Positions 23,144 to 46,173 of a stretch of DNA of 64,000 nt are shown piece by piece. Made by a program: the position numbers and the translations under genes. The DNA is taken from positions 14,076,001 through 14,140,000 of the forward strand of contig NC_058368.1 of NCBI RefSeq assembly GCF_018350175.1. The letters are read 5' to 3'. The DNA is from Felis catus. Its lineage: Eukaryota. Each line of letters begins with the position of its first letter. Positions within the stretch are counted from its first letter, which is position 1. The notes beneath the pieces were generated by a model, which was given only the letters and a program-made list of their open reading frames with translations, did no database searches and had not been told where the DNA came from.

Positions 23144-24268
23144 GAAAGCTTTTACTTCTAATTTTATTTGACCAGTTTGTCCTTAGTCTACTCATGTGAT
23201 AGAAACAATGGTCTTTCCATTGTTAGTGTTGTTCTATGCTAAATTACCTGGGGATGATAAATAAGGAAACTGGAACACAGTGAAACACATTACTGTTAGC
23301 ATGACCTCAACGGAGATATATAGTGTAACTTCCTAATTATAATATTAGTAGTCCTCAAATGAGTGGTACTCAACTTCCCTTCCTTTAACATAAGATGGAT
23401 ACATAACATACACGCAGATACCACATGTTTCTGTTTTCATGCGCTCTCGTAAAATTCCCCAAGCAGAATTTTACTTAATTTTTTAAAAGCACTTATTTTT
23501 AGGATCAGGTCATACAGCTTGACATCTAAAAGATCGTAGATGATAGTTTACAATTCTGATGAGTGAGAATCATTGACTTAAAATCGATTATGGAATAACC
23601 TCTTTTTTCCCATTAGAAAACAGTTCATATTCCTGACAGACATCAAACTAAAGCAGTGTATGTTTTTGGGTATCTACATTGCATGTTTTGTATGGGAAAC
23701 TGCACTGATGACCTTTAAGGTCTTTTACCTTTTTTAATTCAGTAAGTCCTTGAATTTTTACTTATTCATTTATATTTCCCCATCTTGTCACTTCTGTGAC
23801 TAGCAGTACACATTTTCAGTATGGCTGGTCACAGGTGGGGCTCCAGTCTGGTGATAAAACAAACAGAAATTACCTGAAAGTAAACTTGGAGTTAACTATC
23901 CAATTGTTCTAAATTACCTAAGGATAGTAAATAAGGAAAACTTATTACAACACAAAATAACAAGCTTTTGTGAAAATACTTTTTAGGCTAAATTCATTGA
24001 CCTAATATAATTTGTCTTGAATCTAGTTAATGTACTGTATTTTTAAAGCAGAAACCCAGTAATGAATTAATACACTAGGATACAAAGAAACCCTGCCGAG
24101 ATGAATGTTGTTTTTTGTAATATGGCATCTCAATTATAAATTGTTTTCTTTTCTAATAATTCCATTTTAAATTTGCCTAGCTCTTCAATAATTTTTACTT
24201 TATAAATGTTACAAGTAGCATTAAGCTAAGAAAATGTTCACTTGTGTTTTGTTTTTGTGCTATTTTAG

Positions 24269-24422
24269 CCATTCCACAAAGTCTGTAATGGATTTTGTCA
24301 ATAGCAATGAAAATATTATTTTTGTACATAACACAATTCACCTCATTTCCCAAATGGTAGACAACATCATCATTGCTTGTGGAGGAATTTTACCTTTGCT
24401 CTCCGCTGCTACATCACCAACT
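24269..24422 (+). CDS. NBEA: NBEA coding exon (154 nt, phase 2->0): [51 protein letters not shown]
   Basis: tattttag|C acceptor and ACT|gtaagt donor. Lies within ORF 24234..24500. Confidence 0.97.
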
Positions 24423-26914
24423 GTAAGTACTTTGCTTCCATCTAGTGGTGTATTTTATAATTACCCGACAAGAGCATGTCCACAGTATTCTCTGCTCTAA
24501 ACATAAGGATTTTAACAAGACATGTTCACCTAAGGAAACTTTTTCCCTTTTCTTTCTCTTTCATCAGTGTTGCATTTCAGTTATGTGTGTTTATGAAAAT
24601 ACTAATCTGGCAATATTGATGAGTAATTTGAAGAAGAGCCATAACTATAAGTGACTTAATGTTATTTTCTATATACTGCCTATCTTTTCAAATATATAGT
24701 AAACTTAAAATTTTTATTCTGTAACTCTTGAAGTTCTAAATACAAATACATGGTTATTGTGTAAGTAGAGTCATAAATCTAAATTTAGAAAAAAAAACAT
24801 TATTAGTAATGCAGAATCTTACGTGAATTACTTGGAATATTATTTATAAACAATATTATTTTAAACTGTATATGGGAGTTTTATATTCCTGTTCTCTGAG
24901 ATGTAATCTTGAAGCCAGAAATTTGCTTTCAAAAGGGAACCAAACTGATGAATTCTTATTTAAAACTCAGGCACCTCGGATAGAAAAAATATAAATAACA
25001 TACCATTTTTAAGCTATCTGAACAGTTTCATAATCCTTAAAAACCTCAAAAAAATTTTTATAGACATATGGACTCTAATAGCATTTGCATCTCACTTTAT
25101 CTACTAGTTCAGCATTTTATTTAAAAATATATATAGCTGTTTTTCATTCTATATAAAACATTGAAATGTATTAATAAGTTTGAAAGGCATTTAATTATAT
25201 ATATTTAAAATATAGGTCAATGTTAACTTCATATTTTAATTGTAATGTTAAAAATCTCTGATTTCTATTAAAAAACCACATTCCATAGCTACTTGCTCAC
25301 ATAGGAAAGAATGTAGAACTCTGCCTCTCATATTGCCTGTGTTCCTGCCACCATATTGGAAACTAATCCATAGCTGGAAAAGTATGCTCTTTCCACAGAG
25401 AAACGTGTTTTTTGTTGTTGTTAAGATGTCTTTTACTTGGTGCGGCAGTGTTTCCAAATTAATCTCTGGCTTTATTTCATCATTAACCAGCTTTTCCTAC
25501 GTGATTACTTTTCTCTCTGTAGTTTTGTCAATAGCACCCCCCCCCCCCAAAGGAACATTGAAAGTTAAATATTGGCAGCAAAAGCTTGTATCCTGAACAT
25601 CTCTCCCCCCTCACAGGCACATACACTTTGATTTCATTCATGAATTTATTCAAGAAGTCTACAAAGGCAAACAGGCTAGTTCAAGAGGGAGTGCAGAACA
25701 GTTCATCATTATTAGAGCCTTAATTGAATTAGCAAGTAAGCAAGGAAATGGAGCCAGGAAGAAAAATAATTGACGGCATGTGAGGGATGTGGATATCCTG
25801 TGAGATTAATGTACCATCTCTTCTCTTTAATCTCTGATTTCCTCTGGTGATTTATACAAAATTCTGGTAAATTGGGAGTCATATATGATTTTCTAAATGC
25901 ATTCTAATATTGAGGCAAGAAGAGGTTTTTTTTTCCCCCTTCTACACATTCAAAGCTGAATAAATCAGTATTTTCTCCTGGCATTTTTTTTAATCATATA
26001 AAATTCTTTAATGTTTTCTAAGCAGTCATTTTTTGTCAAATTTTAAAAGGTTGTATTGAAATTCATTTTATAATATTTAAAAATTTTGTGCAGAACTGGA
26101 AATGATCTCTATATAAAATTAATAGTAGGTATTAAAATTTGTATAGGTTTGAAGTTTGCCTGTTTTTATTTTATAATGAATATATAATAAAGATATTGGC
26201 ATTTTGATAATTTCAAATTAATTCAAATTAATAATTTCAAAATTATTAGCTTTGTAGTTTGGATCACTATATTTTGCACTTTGAAACTGCTTATTGCTTA
26301 GACTGTTCATAACAGATTTAGGAAGTCATTCAATTGTAGAAATTTTTCTTCATTGTCTATTTCTCTATCTTTCTGTCAGTTTGGTCCATTAACTGATTGT
26401 ACCTATGCCTGGTTATACACCATAGCTGATTTTATGTTCTTTGAATAAATTGCTTCCTTAAAAGACCCATCCAGAACCTTTTCTCTCACTTGATGCTGGT
26501 AGAACTCTGATTGGTGCTGACTGCTGGGTATTGTTTTCTCTTACTTGATTGTGTAATATTCCTGGTAAAAATCGTAATGTAGTAGAGGGGGAGAGTTTGG
26601 AAAGAAGAGATTGAATGAAGAATAAAATTAGAACTGGATAGGGAGGTTTTTGGCTTAGATTTAAATGTAAAACTCCAAAAGAGAATTTTGGAAAGAATAA
26701 GTGAAAGAGGAAACATTGGCAGTGTACAGATTAGCAAAGGGAAACATTGTTATGTAGATGCCATTATAATTATAATTAATTTCAATCCTAGATATATAAA
26801 GAGAGAAACATTTGAAACTGGTGTTTAAGTGATCTCATGATTTTGTTTAGGTTGGTGTGATTTTAAAATGCATATATGCATAAATGAATGAATAAATATG
26901 AATAATGGTGGATG

Positions 26915-27142
26915 GCTGTGGCTAGCAAACTTTTTCTCTATGGGTCAGATGATAAATATTTTCAGTTTTGTGAGCTATATGGTATCTGTCTCAACTTCTC
27001 AACTCTGCTAGTGTTGTGCAAAAGACAGTTATATAAAGTTATATAAAGGAATAGGTACGGGTTTGTCTCAAGAAAAATTTATTTATAAAAAAAGGCAGTG
27101 GGACAGATTTACTTGTGTGTCATAGTTTACTGACTGCTGACT
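26915..27142. mobile_element. MER58A-like MITE
   Basis: ggctagcaaactttttt...gggtcagatgataaatattttcag...tatatggtatctgtc...caactctgc. Confidence 0.75.
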
Positions 27143-27639
27143 TAGAGCATAATCCTTACATAAAATTCATAAGTTTAACATAGTATAATGTTTCAGTATG
27201 AAAACTTTATTACTGACCATTGAAAATTCAGTAATTAGAGCTTAAGATAAACTCACCCTTTTCTATTAAATAAGAACTTAAATTTGACTTACTCAATATT
27301 TTTTAAAGTTTAATTTTTAGAGCAGTTTCATTGTATGTTGTGGTCCTTATGTTCTATTAGAAGATATATAATTTTCACACTCAGCCATACTAATTTTTTC
27401 TAGCATTTGACGTGTCTAATGTTAAAATTGTATTTAATTTTGAGAGGGTAAGTAGAATGCTAAATATTCTTCTTTTTTTATTTTACCAAGGTCAACAGTA
27501 ACACTAGTTGTAATTATTTCTACTAACAATGAACATGTGGACACAGAAATTAAATATACAAATATGAGATACTTAAATACACAAATATGAGGTACTCTCA
27601 AATATGAGCTATAACAATAAATATATGTTACCTTTACAT

Positions 27640-28045
27640 TAAAAACTATAAAAGACAGGTAAAAGCAATCAAAGATGGTCTAAATAAATGGAGACTATAC
27701 CATGTTTATGGGTTGGAGACTCAGCGTAACAGGGGTAACACTTGTCCCCAAATTGGTATTTACATGTATCGCAGTTACTATCAAAATCCCACCAATTTTT
27801 TTTGTAGATACAAAGACTATTTTTTACTTATTTATTTTTTTACAAACACTATTTTTTAAAAAAATTCACACGGAATAGTTAAAACAATTTTGAAAGACTC
27901 ATTATATATTAAATACAGTAGCCAAGACTGCGTAGTATCTTGGAAAGACATAGTTCAGTGGAACAGAACAAAAACACAGAGATAAACATCCAACATGCAC
28001 AATTTTTTTCCTCAGTCAAGGAAGGATAGCTTTTTCAAAAACAGG
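27640..28045 (+). mobile_element. Degenerate L1 ORF2 fragment
   Basis: ctaaataaatggagactataccatgtttatgggttggagactca...atcaaaatcccacca. Confidence 0.75.
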
Positions 28046-30047
28046 TTAATGCTAAGTTTTCTTTGTCATTCTCCATTGAAATAAATCATGATACAAAGTT
28101 CAACTCAGGAATATGTGTTTCCCATTTCTCACATAAAGATGGGTGTCATGATAACTATGGAAACTTCTCATTTTCATCGAACAGACTTGTTTCCCACCAT
28201 TAGTGAGATTCAGACACAATCTGAAATTAAGATTTGATATAAGATATATGGATTTTGGCATAAAATAAATGTGTATTTTAACCTGGGTTCTACCACTTCC
28301 TAGATGGGAACACACTCTCAATCTCTTATTTATGAAAATGTGTTAATTATACTTATCTAACAGGGGGTTTGTGGAAATTAGGGTAAGTAATATGTGTAAA
28401 GCTCAATAGTTGGGGAATGCTCCTAATGTTTCCTTCATTTAGTTGTTTTTGGAACTATTCAGAATTGTATCATGATAGAATAATTTTCTCATTTATAAAA
28501 TAATCCTGTCATATTCAGAATCCTAAAATAGGATATTTGAGACAAATTTATTCATGACGCGTGATTTATTTTGATGGCCAAAGATTAACATGATATAATC
28601 TTTTTGTCTGCTATCCCAATGGGATTAGCATAGTGGTGGTCTGTTTTCTGCCCTGCGATCTTATAGGAATATACTATTTCACACTAAGGATAACAGTTGT
28701 GTATTGCTGTGGCAGTATCATCACGTAAGAAAAGTTGAACTGTTTAGATAAATCTTACTTGTAAGCAAATATTTTAGTAGAAACTTTAAGGAAAAAGAAT
28801 CCTTACATCATATTTATATTATAGTGAACACCTTGAACTTAATATTCATTGAAGAAGCAGGACTTTTGGAATTTCAGTTTTGCCTAGGTTAACTATGTGG
28901 CATAAAAATAAATCACAAAAATAGTTTCAAGTCTCTAAATTAGATCGGTGGTTTTAACTTCAATAGTCACAGAAAAAATGTAAACCTTTTTTAGTATGTA
29001 GTTTGACCAATCTTTGGTTTTGGAAAAGGGCATTATTTTTGTTGTTGTTGATTTTTTTAGAGTTAATGTTTCTATGACTAGTCAATTGAATCCTCTCTTT
29101 CATTCTCTATACATTGTTAAGTTGGTCACGAATGAAAAAAAGGAGTTGTAGAAAAAAGAGAAGCAAAGAACATGGATCAATTACAAATTGCATAATCACT
29201 TCGTGATTTTCAGTTGATTATTTGGTCAGCCCTCCAGAACACTGAATGTTTAGAATTTAATTCAGTGTCTTGTATGGTTTCATTTTCTCTGTTAAGGAGA
29301 ATAACAGAGACTGATATTTCTGGCTTTCCTAATAGTTTCATAATAAAGAAAAAAGAAGAGTATTTTCTGTCAAAAAATGATGATAAGGTCTTGAATTTAG
29401 TTTACATTTAATTATCATTATCAGAATGTGTGGAAAAATTAGTAATTTTTCTTTTGTTTATCTCATACGTTAGTATTTTCAGAAGGCTTATATGCATTTT
29501 CCTATACAGTGTAACATGAAAATTGTGTATTTGAAATTTATGCTCACATATATTTGTTGTCAAAAATCAGAGAATAGGAACGGTTAATGACTTTTATTCC
29601 GAAACTTAATTCTAGCCAAACTTTTGGATATATTGAATATAATTCTTAGTTAATATTCTGAAACTTAGTGTACTATGTAATTAGCTTAGTTCACATGCAG
29701 GCCTCATTAGTGTATCTATCAGTTCTTTCTAGCAAGGGAAAGTGGTTTTTAAGTTATAATCACTACAGTATTTTATTCTTTAACTCCTGGAGATTTAGAT
29801 CTATAGGAAAAACTCCAAATATTAAAAAAAAAATTATAACATGATTCCTTAATGAAAATTCTGGAAAGTTGGTATAAATAGTTTATTTACTTAAATCATT
29901 GCTGCCTAAACCAGTACTGAGGTTAGGGCTTTTACAGAGATACCAAATTAGTTTATTTATTAAAATACCTTCTTAAGCATCACCTGGGAAAATATATTTA
30001 TTTTATAAAATAGAGTATGCATAATTTCTAGTATATGAACTGTACAT

Positions 30048-30093
30048 ATATATATATATTCATATATACTGGTATATATGAATATATATATAT
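30048..30093. repeat. Perfect 22-bp inverted repeat with a 2-nt spacer
   Basis: ATATATATATATTCATATATAC-TG-GTATATATGAATATATATATAT. Confidence 0.95.
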
Positions 30094-30344
30094 TATTTGG
30101 GCAGAGTTACTCTAATGAAAAAAATAAATATTAGTCTAAATATTTGATATTTAATCTTAATCATATGTAATTTATAAAAGAAATATCTCTTCTGAGAACT
30201 TTGCTTTTAATAAAATAATCAAATATAATTTTTAAATATATTATTTTGTGTTTCAATTTTACATTGTATTTTCATTTAATTTTAATAATTTCCTTTTCTT
30301 GTACTTTTTTGATCTGTTGTCTGTTTTGTCTAATGCATGTCCAG

Positions 30345-30353
30345 GGTTCTAAG
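30345..30353 (+). CDS. NBEA: NBEA 9-nt microexon GGT TCT AAG (Gly-Ser-Lys), phase 0->0
   Basis: Long U-rich tract then ...taatgcatgtccag|GGTTCTAAG|gttagt. It supplies the GSK that I recall lying between SAATSPT and TELENIE in mammalian neurobeachin, which neither flanking exon encodes. Confidence 0.9.
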
Positions 30354-32677
30354 GTTAGTATTACTTCAGTAATTTTCAGGTTTTCAGTTTTAAGTTTTAT
30401 TTTTGCTTATTTATGAAATTTTTGACTTGGTTGTATTTTGAGTTTCCATACCATCTTTAATATTAGACATATCTTTGGTATATTTAAAAGATTCATTAAA
30501 AGGATTTTTTTCTATGCATTGATTAACTACTATCTTATGACCCACAATAACCTTTAGACTAAACTATTATAATGAAAACAAATTTCAGTCATATGTACAA
30601 TCAGATGTTAATTGGTTCCGTTGAAAGGAGATTGGATGGAATATATGTTATTTTAAGATTCAATAATAATCATGTGAGTGATCTTTATTATTAAATATAT
30701 GTTATAATGTTTATATAACATTTCATCAAAGTCACTAATTATATAGATTTAATAAGAACTCCCTTTCTGGTTATTTGTGTTAAGAATGCTTTTTATTTTA
30801 AAATTTTATTTGGTTAGGTCAAAAATATAATTTTGCAAATTACATGGATGATAAAATTTTGTTTATAATTTCTGTATGTAATTCAGTCTTAAAAATGAAA
30901 GCATGTTTTGAAAGCTAGGCTTAGTAGACCAGGAAACCATGAAAATAAGACCATTAACTAATAATAATGAGTTAGATTTCTTATAATTTCAGTAATTCAA
31001 AATGACGAATTTCTTTGAGAATCCATCTATAGATGTCCTAGAATCCTAATATTTTTGAAAATTTATTTAGAATATTTGATAGACCTAAGCAATGGCCAGA
31101 TCTTCCATTCCATATTGAAACACATTAACTGAGATTTAAAATGGGTCTTATGTGAAATCATTACTTTTTTTTTTTTGCTTTTATTATAAACTATTGTATT
31201 GTGATCTCAGATTTTTAATTCCTGCTGTGAAATAATACTGTATATCAATGAAGTGCTAGGAAATACGGGATCTGTATTTAGGAAATCCAAGTAATCAATT
31301 ATTTCTTTACACCGTGGATACTGAGTTGGCACAGTGTAAATCAAGTTGAAAACAAATTTTTGTCTATTTTCTAGCTCATTTTAGAGAGAATGGTTTTAGA
31401 ACTATTTTGCTGTTAAATGGAAGGAAGAAAGGTTATTACATTTTATACTCCATTTAGAATCAACTTTAGTTATGTAGTGCTTGCAGTAGTCACCTATCAC
31501 TTTTATTACCCATCTTGTGCACAAGAAGTGTTTTAAGAGGTTTTGGTTTTTTTTTTTTTTTCCAATCAGTGTTTCCTGCTGACATTTCCATTTTAATGTG
31601 AGCAGGAATATGTTTAGGTAGAATGATGGGCATAAACAATGTCCAAATGGAACATTAAATAGGAGTAGATACCTATAATGTATGCTTACCTTGTAGTTGA
31701 ATTTATCATCTGGTGAAGAAATAAGGTTAACCAATGTGGTTAGTGTGCCCATTTTCAGAAAAATTAAGCAGTAGTATTTTTTACTTGTAAAGCCCTTCTT
31801 TTCTCTGTCCCCTTGTGGCACTGAGAAAATGAGGCCTAGTTATAATGAACCTTAATAATCAAAATGTTATATAATACAGAATGAAACGTAAAATACAGTA
31901 TGTTGCTGTTGCTTACAAAGTACACAGTTAACACATCTCAAAGTAGTACTTCGTAACATTCCCTTTGAAATCAGGAAATTATATTTTATCATAGTATTTT
32001 AATGAAAGTATAGTTGTACCTAACTAGGATTCTACTGATTCTTCTCATTGCTAATGTCTTATGGGCTACAAATTAATATCTGTAGAGGAATTAATAACTT
32101 TATTATTTTTACCCTAGAATTTCATTGTATGTATGAGATACCCAGTGGCTTAGTTTATTCTGAATGGGTAGGAAATTGTCATATGTTCTCATCTGACACT
32201 TGTCTCATTTTGAGGCCCACTGGAGCTGCCATACATCTTTCCTATTACTTATCTTACATTTATAGCAAAAAGAAATTAAAGCATATCTTTTTAAAAACAG
32301 GAGTGAAGATTTTAGGAAAGTATCCTTTTTATATCTTTGTTAATAAAATAAGACAAAAGTAGTAGAAATATAGATGTGTAATCATTTCTAAGTATCTTTA
32401 TGGAATGATCTTAAGTTTGGAATATAGTTTTCTCAAGTAATGACATTTAAGTTTAACCTTGATTTAAAAAATGAACTTTTCCTTTAAGGATAATTCACAG
32501 GCAAACTAATTAAATTTGATAACCAGCTCTTCTGATCTATAGAATTAGTTTATAATTTATAATTTGTTTTGTTTACAAAATGTACTAAATGTGCTGAACT
32601 GCTTACATATACTATGTGTGAATATGTATTGTATTTCCAAATTTTAAACAAGACTTAAATCTTCTACTTTTTTAAAG

Positions 32678-32858
32678 ACGGAATTGGAAAATATTGAAGT
32701 GACACAAGGCATGTCAGCTGAGACAGCAGTAACTTTCCTCAGCCGATTGATGGCTATGGTTGACGTACTTGTATTTGCCAGCTCTCTAAATTTTAGTGAG
32801 ATTGAAGCTGAAAAAAACATGTCTTCTGGAGGCTTAATGAGACAGTGCCTAAGGCTAG
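32678..32858 (+). CDS. NBEA: NBEA coding exon (181 nt, phase 0->1): [24 protein letters not shown]...[12 protein letters not shown]
   Basis: ttttaaag|ACG acceptor and TAG|gtaagt donor. Overlaps ORF 32684..32890. Confidence 0.97.
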
Positions 32859-35280: not shown

Positions 35281-36589
35281 TACGCGGGAAAAGTGGCATG
35301 GTATTGCTTAATCAAAGAGCAAGGATTTGGTTATCAGTAGGCTTTGGTGCTGGCTTTTCTTCTTCACAATTGTGTTACCAAGATTATTTAACCTCTCTGA
35401 GACTTAACACTTCTTGCTTAAATGAAGATACTAATCATTTCTACTTCATAGGATATTTATTAGGGTGTCAGTACACATAGCTCTGAAAGTTCTTAGTTAT
35501 CACTGTTTTTCATAGTTAAAGGTATTTTCACAGAGCTGAATATTTGAATAACATGTCTTTTAAATGGATATGTTTTTGGTGATAGATATTCTCATAATAT
35601 GAAATATATATGTTGAATACCCAGGAAATGAACGAATAGTGTATTTTGGAGTATACCAGTAATCCCCATTCTGAATTAGCTCTTTATCAATATGTTTCAC
35701 TGACCCTTTGTATCACATCCAGAGTTTTATCAACGTGACCTTTAAGGTCCTGCATGTCTGACTCATGCTTACGTCTCCAGCTGCAGCTTGTACTCCCTTA
35801 CCCCCTTGCTTTTACCGTTTTAGTCATGTGATAGACTTCATTTATTTCATCAGAGGATTTTTTTTCCCCTTAGACTTTTTCATAGGTTCCCTTTACTTGA
35901 AGGGTCAGATTTTTCAAATCTAGCTAAAGTCCATTCACCTCTAGCTTCAGCTTAAGTGCTACCCTTTGAGGAAAATGTTTTCATATACACTTACTGCCAC
36001 CCCTGCCTAGGGTAGTTTCCTCTGTTTGATATTTTCATAAAGCCCTGTATGTCAATTATTGCATCCTACGCTTGTAATGAGATATTTAACATTGACAAGC
36101 TAATTTTTCTGTGCAGTAAGTGAAGACATGAAGTAGTTTAATTCATTTAAATAGTTCTGTGCCTTCAAATTTCTGTATTTTTTAAGCAGAACAACCACAT
36201 ATTTAGCATATCTGTATTGCAGCCTCTTTTTCACTTCTGTCAGAAAACATTCCTAAAATGATTAGACCATATTGTATATCAAGTCTCCAAAGCAGTCGCC
36301 GTTACTTAGAAAATTAAATATTAACACATCAGCAAGAATGTCTCATGTTATTTGTGTAGGCATAGTAGACTGTTAGTTGAGGGCAGTCTCGTACATCTTT
36401 GTAATTCCAGAGCAGGTATGTATAACATTGGCAATACTTTGTCAAAAGAGTACTAATTCTAGAATCAGACAGGTCTGAGTTTGTATTCTAGCTCTACCCC
36501 ATAACAAGTGTTGTGACATAAGATGAACTTCCTAGTCTCCTGGGCCTGAGTTTTCCAGTCTTTAAAATGGATACAAATTTTAACTTTCT

Positions 36590-44635: not shown

Positions 44636-46077
44636 GTACTATTTTTTTTTAATTATTTGAATTTTTATCATCATTTTTCTCTTTTTGTTTCATTTTTACT
44701 TCCAGATATAAACTAGTCCTACTTATAAAATCCCATCACACATTTATAAGTAGGTGGTATATAAATGCCAATTTCATTTTCCTTAATTCTGCAAAAGTGT
44801 GTGGATTTCCATGATATTAACTGATTCTCATTTTGCCAGTGCAGTTTGGTTTTAGTGTTTTCCACCTATTAATACAAACCATTTACTACTTGATATGCAT
44901 ATAACTGATATATTTTTAATGTATTACTTTTTAACTATTATGAACATGAAAGTAGGAGATCCTTATGGAGTAAAGACCTTGAATAAGCCAAAATTTAAAT
45001 CTTTAGAGCCAAATTTAAAGATAGCTTCTTTCTCTCTCTCTCTCTCTCATTCTCTCTTTCTTTTGCTGTGTATAGTTACTTAAGGATATAAATTTTTATC
45101 AGAAATTCATAGTAAGCAAACATATATTCTAAACTTTATACCATATATTCTATACTTTAGCTTAGTCAACTAAAATCAAAGACTTACAGACAATAAGGAA
45201 CCATCTTGGGTCATATTGTCTTTATTATTTGGCACAGATGCTTATGGTGTGGGAGTTCTTGCATTATCAGCTTTGCCTACTCTGCTTAAAAATGATAAAC
45301 TAACATTTTAATATCATGGGGTGCCTTCTGTCAGTTGCATTTCCTGCCCTGTGTTTATATCAAGGTTGTTTCTTGGTTGTTTGCAGTGTATCCTTAGTAA
45401 CCTAGTGGTTATTTCATGTACCACTGGATTAATTTGTAGTTGAGATTGTCTTTCCTAAATAAATGCGTATGATATATAAAGAAAGTGGGTATTTTACAAA
45501 GTGAGTAGAAATTAGTGGTCAAATCTCTGCATCTTGTTTTCCATGAGCATATCATATCTCCTTTTACCTTGACATTGTGGAAATATGGATTATGTTTTAG
45601 CTATTATACTTTATTTTTGCATGCTAAATTTACTTTGAATACATAAACATGACACTATTTCATTGCAATATACTTTTAACTTTATTCTTCAAATTAAACA
45701 TTATCCTACCATTCCATTTTATGTCTTTTGACCATTTAAAACACTAAGACATTATGTTAACCAATTTTTTCTTCATTTTTAATGCATCCATGTCAGCTTT
45801 ATATGTATAAAACAAGCAATATTTTAGTCAGTCTTCCAGTTCTGATTTTTTGTGTGTGTGTGTCTTTCTGTGCGTTGCCAAGATTGCTCTACTTAACAAG
45901 TGTATGATTTCTCCTTTCTCTTAATATGTAACCTCTTTCCTTCCCCCAGAGATGCAGTCTTTATTTCTAGTACTGTTTGCATGTTGCAGTAATTCAGAGT
46001 TGTCATGGATCTCCAGTGGACCATGTTGCAGGTTGTTACATGCTGGCTCAAATTTGATTCCATGATTTTCTCTACAG

Positions 46078-46173
46078 TTGTGGTCATACCATCTATCCCT
46101 CATCCAAGTTTGAACCATGGATTCCTTGCCAAGTTAATTCCTGAGCAGAGCTTTGCCCACTCATTTTACAAAG
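46078..46173 (+). CDS. NBEA: NBEA coding exon (96 nt, symmetric phase 1->1, likely cassette): VVVIPSIPHPSLNHGFLAKLIPEQSFAHSFYK
   Basis: tctctacag|TT acceptor and AAG|gtaata donor. Lies within ORF 46005..46196. Confidence 0.93.

Follow-up and report, generated by a model that had tools for sequence, protein, structure and literature searches.

Microexons that depend on the neuronal splicing factor SRRM4 (nSR100) have been described in mouse, and Nbea, the gene for neurobeachin, is named among the genes with nSR100-regulated microexons in the main text of Quesnel-Vallieres et al. (2015, PMC4387716). Table S2 of that paper lists the mouse Nbea event MmuEX0030987, located at chr3:55797970-55797978, with a length of 9 nucleotides (nt). 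Its inclusion is given as percent spliced in (PSI), for brain only. In the cortex the PSI values are 70.9 and 74.3 in the wild type and 36.8 and 41.4 in the nSR100 mutant, in the hippocampus they are 66.1 and 65.9 in the wild type and 36.2 and 36.4 in the mutant, and the mean difference (dPSI) is -31.6. The same paper reports that UGC is strongly enriched in the first nucleotides upstream of nSR100-regulated microexons. The link between NBEA and SRRM4 microexons is repeated in a review, and the 9-nt NBEA exon is placed, again in a review, in the SRRM4-dependent microexon set linked to autism. According to published abstracts, NBEA variants cause a neurodevelopmental disorder with epilepsy. Here, we describe a site of this kind in a stretch of 64,000 nt from Felis catus (assembly GCF_018350175.1, contig NC_058368.1, positions 14,076,001 to 14,140,000 of the forward strand), which is called the window in the following. 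A reading of the letters alone (the original prediction) had proposed that a large intron in the window hides a neuron-regulated 9-nt exon encoding Gly-Ser-Lys (GSK). The follow-up analysis places this intron in NBEA, and it is quite probable that the exon is the conserved alternative 9-nt NBEA microexon with SRRM4-type neuronal regulation. Catalogues already contain this exon, and its SRRM4 dependence in mouse has been published; it is a correct but ordinary find.

The host intron comprises positions 24423-32677 (8255 nt) and is in phase 0 at both junctions. Within it, ccag, then GGTTCTAAG and then gttagt can be read directly in the window sequence. The hexamer TGCATG ends 5 nt before the exon start, with tccag (30340-30344) between the two, and is itself preceded by a U-rich tract in which a ttgAt motif, with its A at 30312, is a candidate branch point. 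All parts of the layout that had been claimed, i.e., TGCATG, ccag, the 9-nt exon, gttagt, the U-rich tract and the phase-0 flanks, are present in the sequence. The features of the site, including its flanking exons and a possible extension that is discussed below, are the following, in coordinates of the window:

24269..24422, + strand: upstream NBEA exon, ending ..LLSAATSPT (TCA CCA ACT) in phase 0 and followed by gtaagt (tblastn, 94-100% identity to neurobeachin proteins)
about 30290..30331, + strand: U-rich pyrimidine tract with interspersed G, ttccttttcttgtacttttttgatctgttgtctgttttgtct (sequence)
30334..30339, + strand: TGCATG, the first three bases of which are a UGC at -11 to -9 of the 3' splice site
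30343..30344, + strand: 3' splice-site AG (ccAG) (sequence)
30345..30353, + strand: 9-nt microexon GGTTCTAAG, GGT TCT AAG, Gly-Ser-Lys (sequence, translation, chance test)
30354..30359, + strand: proximal 5' splice site GTTAGT (AAG/GTTAGT), matching 8 of 9 consensus positions
30354..30368, + strand: possible 15-nt extension GTT AGT ATT ACT TCA, VSITS, in open frame (sequence, candidate list)
30369..30374, + strand: weak distal candidate 5' splice site GTAATT, matching 5 of 9 consensus positions
32678..32858, + strand: downstream NBEA exon with phase-0 start TELENIEV.. (ACG GAA TTG GAA) after ttttaaag (100% identity to amniote neurobeachin)

Insertion of GSK between SPT and TELE leaves the reading frame unchanged. 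With a length of not more than 27 nt, AG/GT borders, a preserved frame, and both included and skipped forms known from other species, the exon has the properties of an alternative cassette microexon, and the UGC between an extended pyrimidine tract and the AG is a motif of the SRRM4 type.

The occurrence of the insert in proteins and transcripts of other species was surveyed by sorting the 120 listed matches of a search with the downstream exon according to the residues in front of TELE; 14 members of the rat cluster were then read. Among the 120 listed matches, SPT or SPS was joined directly to TELE in 47, and SPT-GSK-TELE was present in five (mouse lemur X5 and X6, rat X8, and two Logan transcripts of about 6.5 kb). 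One Logan transcript had SPS-SAK-TELE. An insert of eight residues starting with GSK or SSK was found in nine matches, the forms being GSKVSIAA in ostrich and paddlefish, GSKVSITD and GSKVSISD in two frogs, and SSKSSANT and SSKVSTST in teleosts, while VSGTT only preceded TELE in two (Astyanax). The rest were genomic read-through open reading frames (ORFs), had other N-terminal contexts, or did not contain the region. Four of the 14 rat cluster members carried GSK (meerkat, grey seal X2, a sandgrouse and a tortoise) and one, from a warbler, carried GSKVSIAA; six showed the skipped form, one was a read-through, and two were without the region. In total, SPT-GSK-TELE is annotated or transcribed in nine proteins, which belong to mammals, a bird and a tortoise. 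These identical peptides in other vertebrates bear out the proposed 3-residue NBEA microexon, as well as the accompanying guess that the peptide itself would already be known. The exon cannot, in general, be called hidden, as the original prediction had it: it is present in VastDB-type tables and in NCBI X-isoforms. To look for read-through ORFs of other species, the frame that runs through the microexon in genomic DNA was searched against proteins, which gave no candidates.

Two observations on fish proteins were made during the survey. In the Astyanax proteins P0087 and P0090, the VSGTT between SPS and TELE equals the second part of an 8-residue form, the first three residues being gone; either the AG that closes the short exon would have to serve as an acceptor, or this is a gene-model error. 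In seven teleost proteins (P0079, P0080, P0081, P0086, P0092, P0095 and P0102), a Gly-rich segment (such as ..GGGGAGGE) stands before TELE and replaces the SPT/SPS exon end.

The relation of the window exon to the mouse event was approached via the isoforms. GSK is the sole 3-residue cassette among nine isoform sequences that cover the C-terminal ~1600 residues, the remaining cassettes being 32, 6 and 11 alignment columns long, and among 63 long NBEA sequences, GSK was again the one cassette of this size that recurred. As the only 9-nt cassette in the isoform sets is the one encoding GSK, MmuEX0030987 is likely to be the orthologue of the window exon.

Conservation of the intronic sequence around the exon was analysed using the 14 loci obtained in a metagenome scan with the TELE exon. 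Only one of these, the fish-like NBEA locus L002 with its short introns, has both flanking exons and the homologous intron. This intron is 913 nt long and contains ttgtttgttttgtctgtgcatgtctatAGTGCCAAGgttatt. Positions 30312-30362 of the window are identical to it in 39 of 51 columns, compared with 35% and 24% on either side. The local alignment score of 27 was not reached by any of 1000 shuffles of either the intron (maximum 21) or the query (maximum 17), and 17 other loci scored 14 or less against the same block. TGCATG is kept in L002, as gTGCATGTC, and so is the 3' half of the U-rich tract. Because the block aligns with the fish-like locus above all shuffles, the U/G-rich tract and TGCATGTC appear to be old; conserved intronic flanks were therefore found, with L002 as the one comparator. 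AGTGCCAAG in L002 would encode the SAK of another fish transcript but is not preceded by an AG. Decay of the exon, a non-canonical acceptor or an error in the contig may account for the state of this locus. At L002 2100-2150, the frame of the longer, 8-residue form meets a stop. In L001, the only locus with 100% peptide identity, no microexon was seen in the 2023 nt upstream of the TELE exon.

SRRM4-type regulation would operate at this site as follows. The exon is too short for exon-spanning definition and would therefore rely on its good 5' splice site (AAG/GTTAGT) and on an upstream intronic enhancer. This enhancer would be formed, just upstream of the exon, by the U-rich tract, the UGC and the AG in this order, with the UGC presumably being the element used by SRRM4. 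Neuron-specific SRRM4, and probably SRRM3 too, would bind to the enhancer and recruit the early spliceosome, and inclusion would consequently be high in neurons and lower without these factors. By analogy with mouse, the same SRRM4 regulation is expected in F. catus. The regulatory part of the original prediction is borne out insofar as a 9-nt mouse Nbea exon is published as nSR100-dependent and a UGC in front of the AG fits the published enrichment; the effect is, however, partial. The mouse data describe a shift from about 70% to about 38%, and not the on/off behaviour that the word "switch" had suggested.

Several points weigh against this interpretation. For the species studied here, both inclusion and tissue pattern rest on orthology, and the identity of MmuEX0030987 rests in turn on the argument from the only 9-nt cassette in the isoform sets. 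Since PSI in the mouse mutant drops only to about 38%, other factors would also sustain the exon. L002 has AT where the window has its acceptor AG, and use of the closest AG would leave a frame-breaking exon of 7 nt, so that the conserved block in this locus is not tied to an obviously usable exon. Lastly, a bare TGC is found within 30 nt upstream of 20.6% of all intron positions, and the TGC motif alone is thus weak evidence.

One alternative is that the site resembles an exon by chance only, as an AG..GT segment of a large AT-rich intron that is never spliced in. The intron does contain 155 mini-exon candidates, defined as stop-free and frame-preserving AG..GT segments of 3-30 nt, which were ranked with a crude score. 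The GSK candidate ranked first of the 155. Its 5' splice-site match (8/9) was the best, tied with one other candidate, and its upstream pyrimidine fraction, 0.72 over 57 nt compared with 0.51 in the whole intron, was the highest. AG-GGN-TCN-AAR-GT occurred once in the window; 100 shuffles contained it 0.10 times on average, and eight of them had at least one occurrence; the version with AGY serine codons was absent, with 0.03 expected. For both serine versions of AG-[Gly-Ser-Lys]-GT together, the expectation is about 0.13 in the whole window and about 0.01 when scaled to one strand of the 8255-nt intron. In addition, an identical insert stands at the identical junction in the nine proteins of other species, transcripts included, and the flanking block is kept in the fish-like locus. 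A look-alike is, on these grounds, extremely improbable. A further reading accepts the exon and assigns a role to the hexamer: UGCAUG may be a working RBFOX site that helps to set inclusion, most likely by repressing the exon or by competing with SRRM4 and U2AF, a role that is the more likely one because the motif sits inside the 3' splice-site region. In the original prediction, RBFOX was by implication an additional activator in neurons. In RBFOX RNA maps, an upstream site more often represses. The hexamer at -11 to -6 is a perfect copy of the RBFOX consensus, and only 0.3% of intron positions have a TGCATG within 30 nt upstream. Over the whole window, the 30 copies of the motif are no more than the 30.7 expected. 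The entire hexamer, beyond its TGC, is kept in L002, but three extra bases kept in one comparator, within a 76% identical block, cannot separate UGCAUG from UGC. RBFOX proteins have been reported to regulate alternative microexons, but in that report TGCATG is over-represented downstream of such exons (Li et al. 2015, PMC4317164). At the present site, no GCATG is found within 300 nt downstream of the exon, the upstream copy being the sole one within +/-300 nt, and the next TGCATG on the + strand, at 35751, lies beyond the next exon; the downstream (U)GCAUG of an RBFOX-activated exon is absent here. Among the literature matches listed, none linked Nbea splicing to RBFOX, and the supplements of PMC4317164 had 0 matches for Nbea, one file not being searchable. 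Taken together, a role of RBFOX is disfavoured by the position of the motif, and we regard the reading as unlikely.

The remaining alternatives concern the 3' end of the exon. It might be used mainly, or also, as a 24-nt exon encoding GSKVSITS via the distal GTAATT, and three isoforms would then exist: skipped, with three additional residues and with eight. Exactly five further codons remain open before a GT is reached, and the proximal donor GTTAGT itself encodes the Val-Ser of the long form. The 24-nt form has the length of the 8-residue inserts of birds, frogs and fishes, of which at least 10 proteins carry one at this junction, and the extension resembles them in sequence, VSIT of the window agreeing with the frog form GSKVSITD in four of five residues and with GSKVSIAA of birds and paddlefish in three of five. 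On the other hand, the mammal-named proteins among those surveyed carry no 8-residue insert, those with an insert having GSK only; the distal donor agrees with the consensus at only 5 of 9 positions, the proximal one at 8 of 9; the mouse table (PMC4387716) gives a 9-nt exon; and sequence beside a microexon may owe its conservation to splicing signals in the intron instead of to coding. Use of the 24-nt form is therefore considered improbable. A more far-reaching proposal would combine these elements into an ancient composite reaching from fish to mammal, in which the UGC for SRRM3/4 lies inside an RBFOX hexamer and allows competition or hand-over, nested donors shift between lineages, and an unannotated mammalian isoform with eight additional residues occurs in some cell types. 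This proposal is likewise improbable, and the conserved 9-nt microexon with SRRM4-type regulation remains our preferred explanation.

That the window contains NBEA follows from several searches. The peptide of the downstream exon retrieved 326 proteins at E <= 0.001; among the 120 of these matches that were listed, many bear the name neurobeachin, their identities ranging up to 100% in mammals, birds and reptiles. tblastn of four neurobeachin proteins against the window yielded 14 matches to NBEA exons, which follow each other in order between 6038 and 63623, and the exons flanking the microexon encode neurobeachin in gene order. When the whole genome was searched (2.43 Gb, 71 contigs), both flanking exons recurred once more, on another contig and with 76-80% identity, as an LRBA-like paralogue. 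Because the other genomic copy is only a 76% identical paralogue, the copy in the window is NBEA itself. Pfam searches with the single flanking exons matched no family, and no solved structure was found for either flanking-exon peptide.

The intron that occupies this phase-0 position in the LRBA-like copy (L018 1654-2295) is about 640 nt long and holds a short interspersed element. No convincing mini-exon was seen in this intron, the best candidate having a 6/9 donor match and a pyrimidine fraction of 0.54. In the invertebrate-like loci L004-L013, SPN is joined to S/N-ELD with a short intron or none; an intron at this position is present in L004, L006, L008 and L009 and absent in L005, L007, L011 and L013, and no microexon was seen in L004-L013. 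On this evidence, the microexon would be specific to vertebrate NBEA.

Additional observations concern other parts of the gene. The exon at 46071-46172 (..VVVIPSIPHPSLNHGFLAKLIPEQSFAHSFYK) is an alternative NBEA cassette: the three mouse lemur isoforms lack it, and five Logan transcripts and a mouse protein contain it. Two other small cassettes among the transcripts, the 6-residue MINTTG and the 11-residue VPFLPKLFISR, are both encoded downstream of the last exon of the window. The mouse lemur models X5-X7 open with MFTYVFLLCYF, which corresponds to window intron sequence at 24234-24268, just before the exon starting at 24269; as these models begin inside an intron, an internal start or a modelling artefact is suggested.

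Residues encoded by microexons in general tend towards surface accessibility (PMC4387716). The fold of a GSK-bearing bird fragment (P0132, 1119 aa) was predicted from a 59-row alignment with a mean predicted local distance difference test (pLDDT) score of 40.5, and nearly all of residues 452-1119 had values below 50. In this model, GSK (889-891) would lie at a break between the predicted helices 850-885 and 891-901, the model being too poor to place the insert. Beyond PMC4387716 and the review, the literature and supplement text searched contained no further detail on this exon, and the supplements of PMC7821500 and PMC12868881 gave 0 matches for it, some files not being searchable. NBEA is also mentioned in the TOGA2 preprint, in connection with the nested MAB21L1 gene and not with the microexon.

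The value of the case lies in calibration: a reading of the sequence only placed a 9-nt exon correctly within an 8-kb intron, and homology confirms it. Biologically, nothing new is established, apart from two small additions of this analysis, a candidate second donor nested behind the first and a UGCAUG block that appears to be conserved from fish to mammal.

Compared with known systems, the site shares with the RBFOX-regulated microexons (PMC4317164) a perfect TGCATG in a flanking intron, but the published enrichment is downstream, whereas here the motif stands upstream, in the 3' splice-site region. The 8-residue forms of other vertebrates (ostrich XP_009684896.1 with GSKVSIAA, paddlefish, frogs and teleosts) have the same G/S-S-K start and could be explained by a donor 15 nt further on, an origin that is read from this window and not from the genomes of those species. 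The annotated GSK isoforms of rat (X8, XP_038959909.1), mouse lemur (X5, XP_020146017.1) and grey seal (X2, XP_035970204.1) have the identical context SPT-GSK-TELE, and precisely this is encoded by the window when 24422>30345 and 30353>32678 are joined; they differ in being computed gene models without information on tissue or regulator. With the SRRM4/nSR100 programme, the window exon has in common a length of not more than 27 nt, a preserved frame, a UGC between the U-rich tract and the AG, conserved flanks, and a gene that is described as acting in vesicle traffic at synapses; the difference is that the dependence was measured in mouse only, where it is partial. The mouse exon MmuEX0030987 comes from a different genome, and its likely orthology is deduced from the isoform sets; it belongs to the same gene, has the same length of 9 nt and likewise preserves the frame, and the window exon has directly upstream the UGC that the mouse study reports for the class (PMC4387716).

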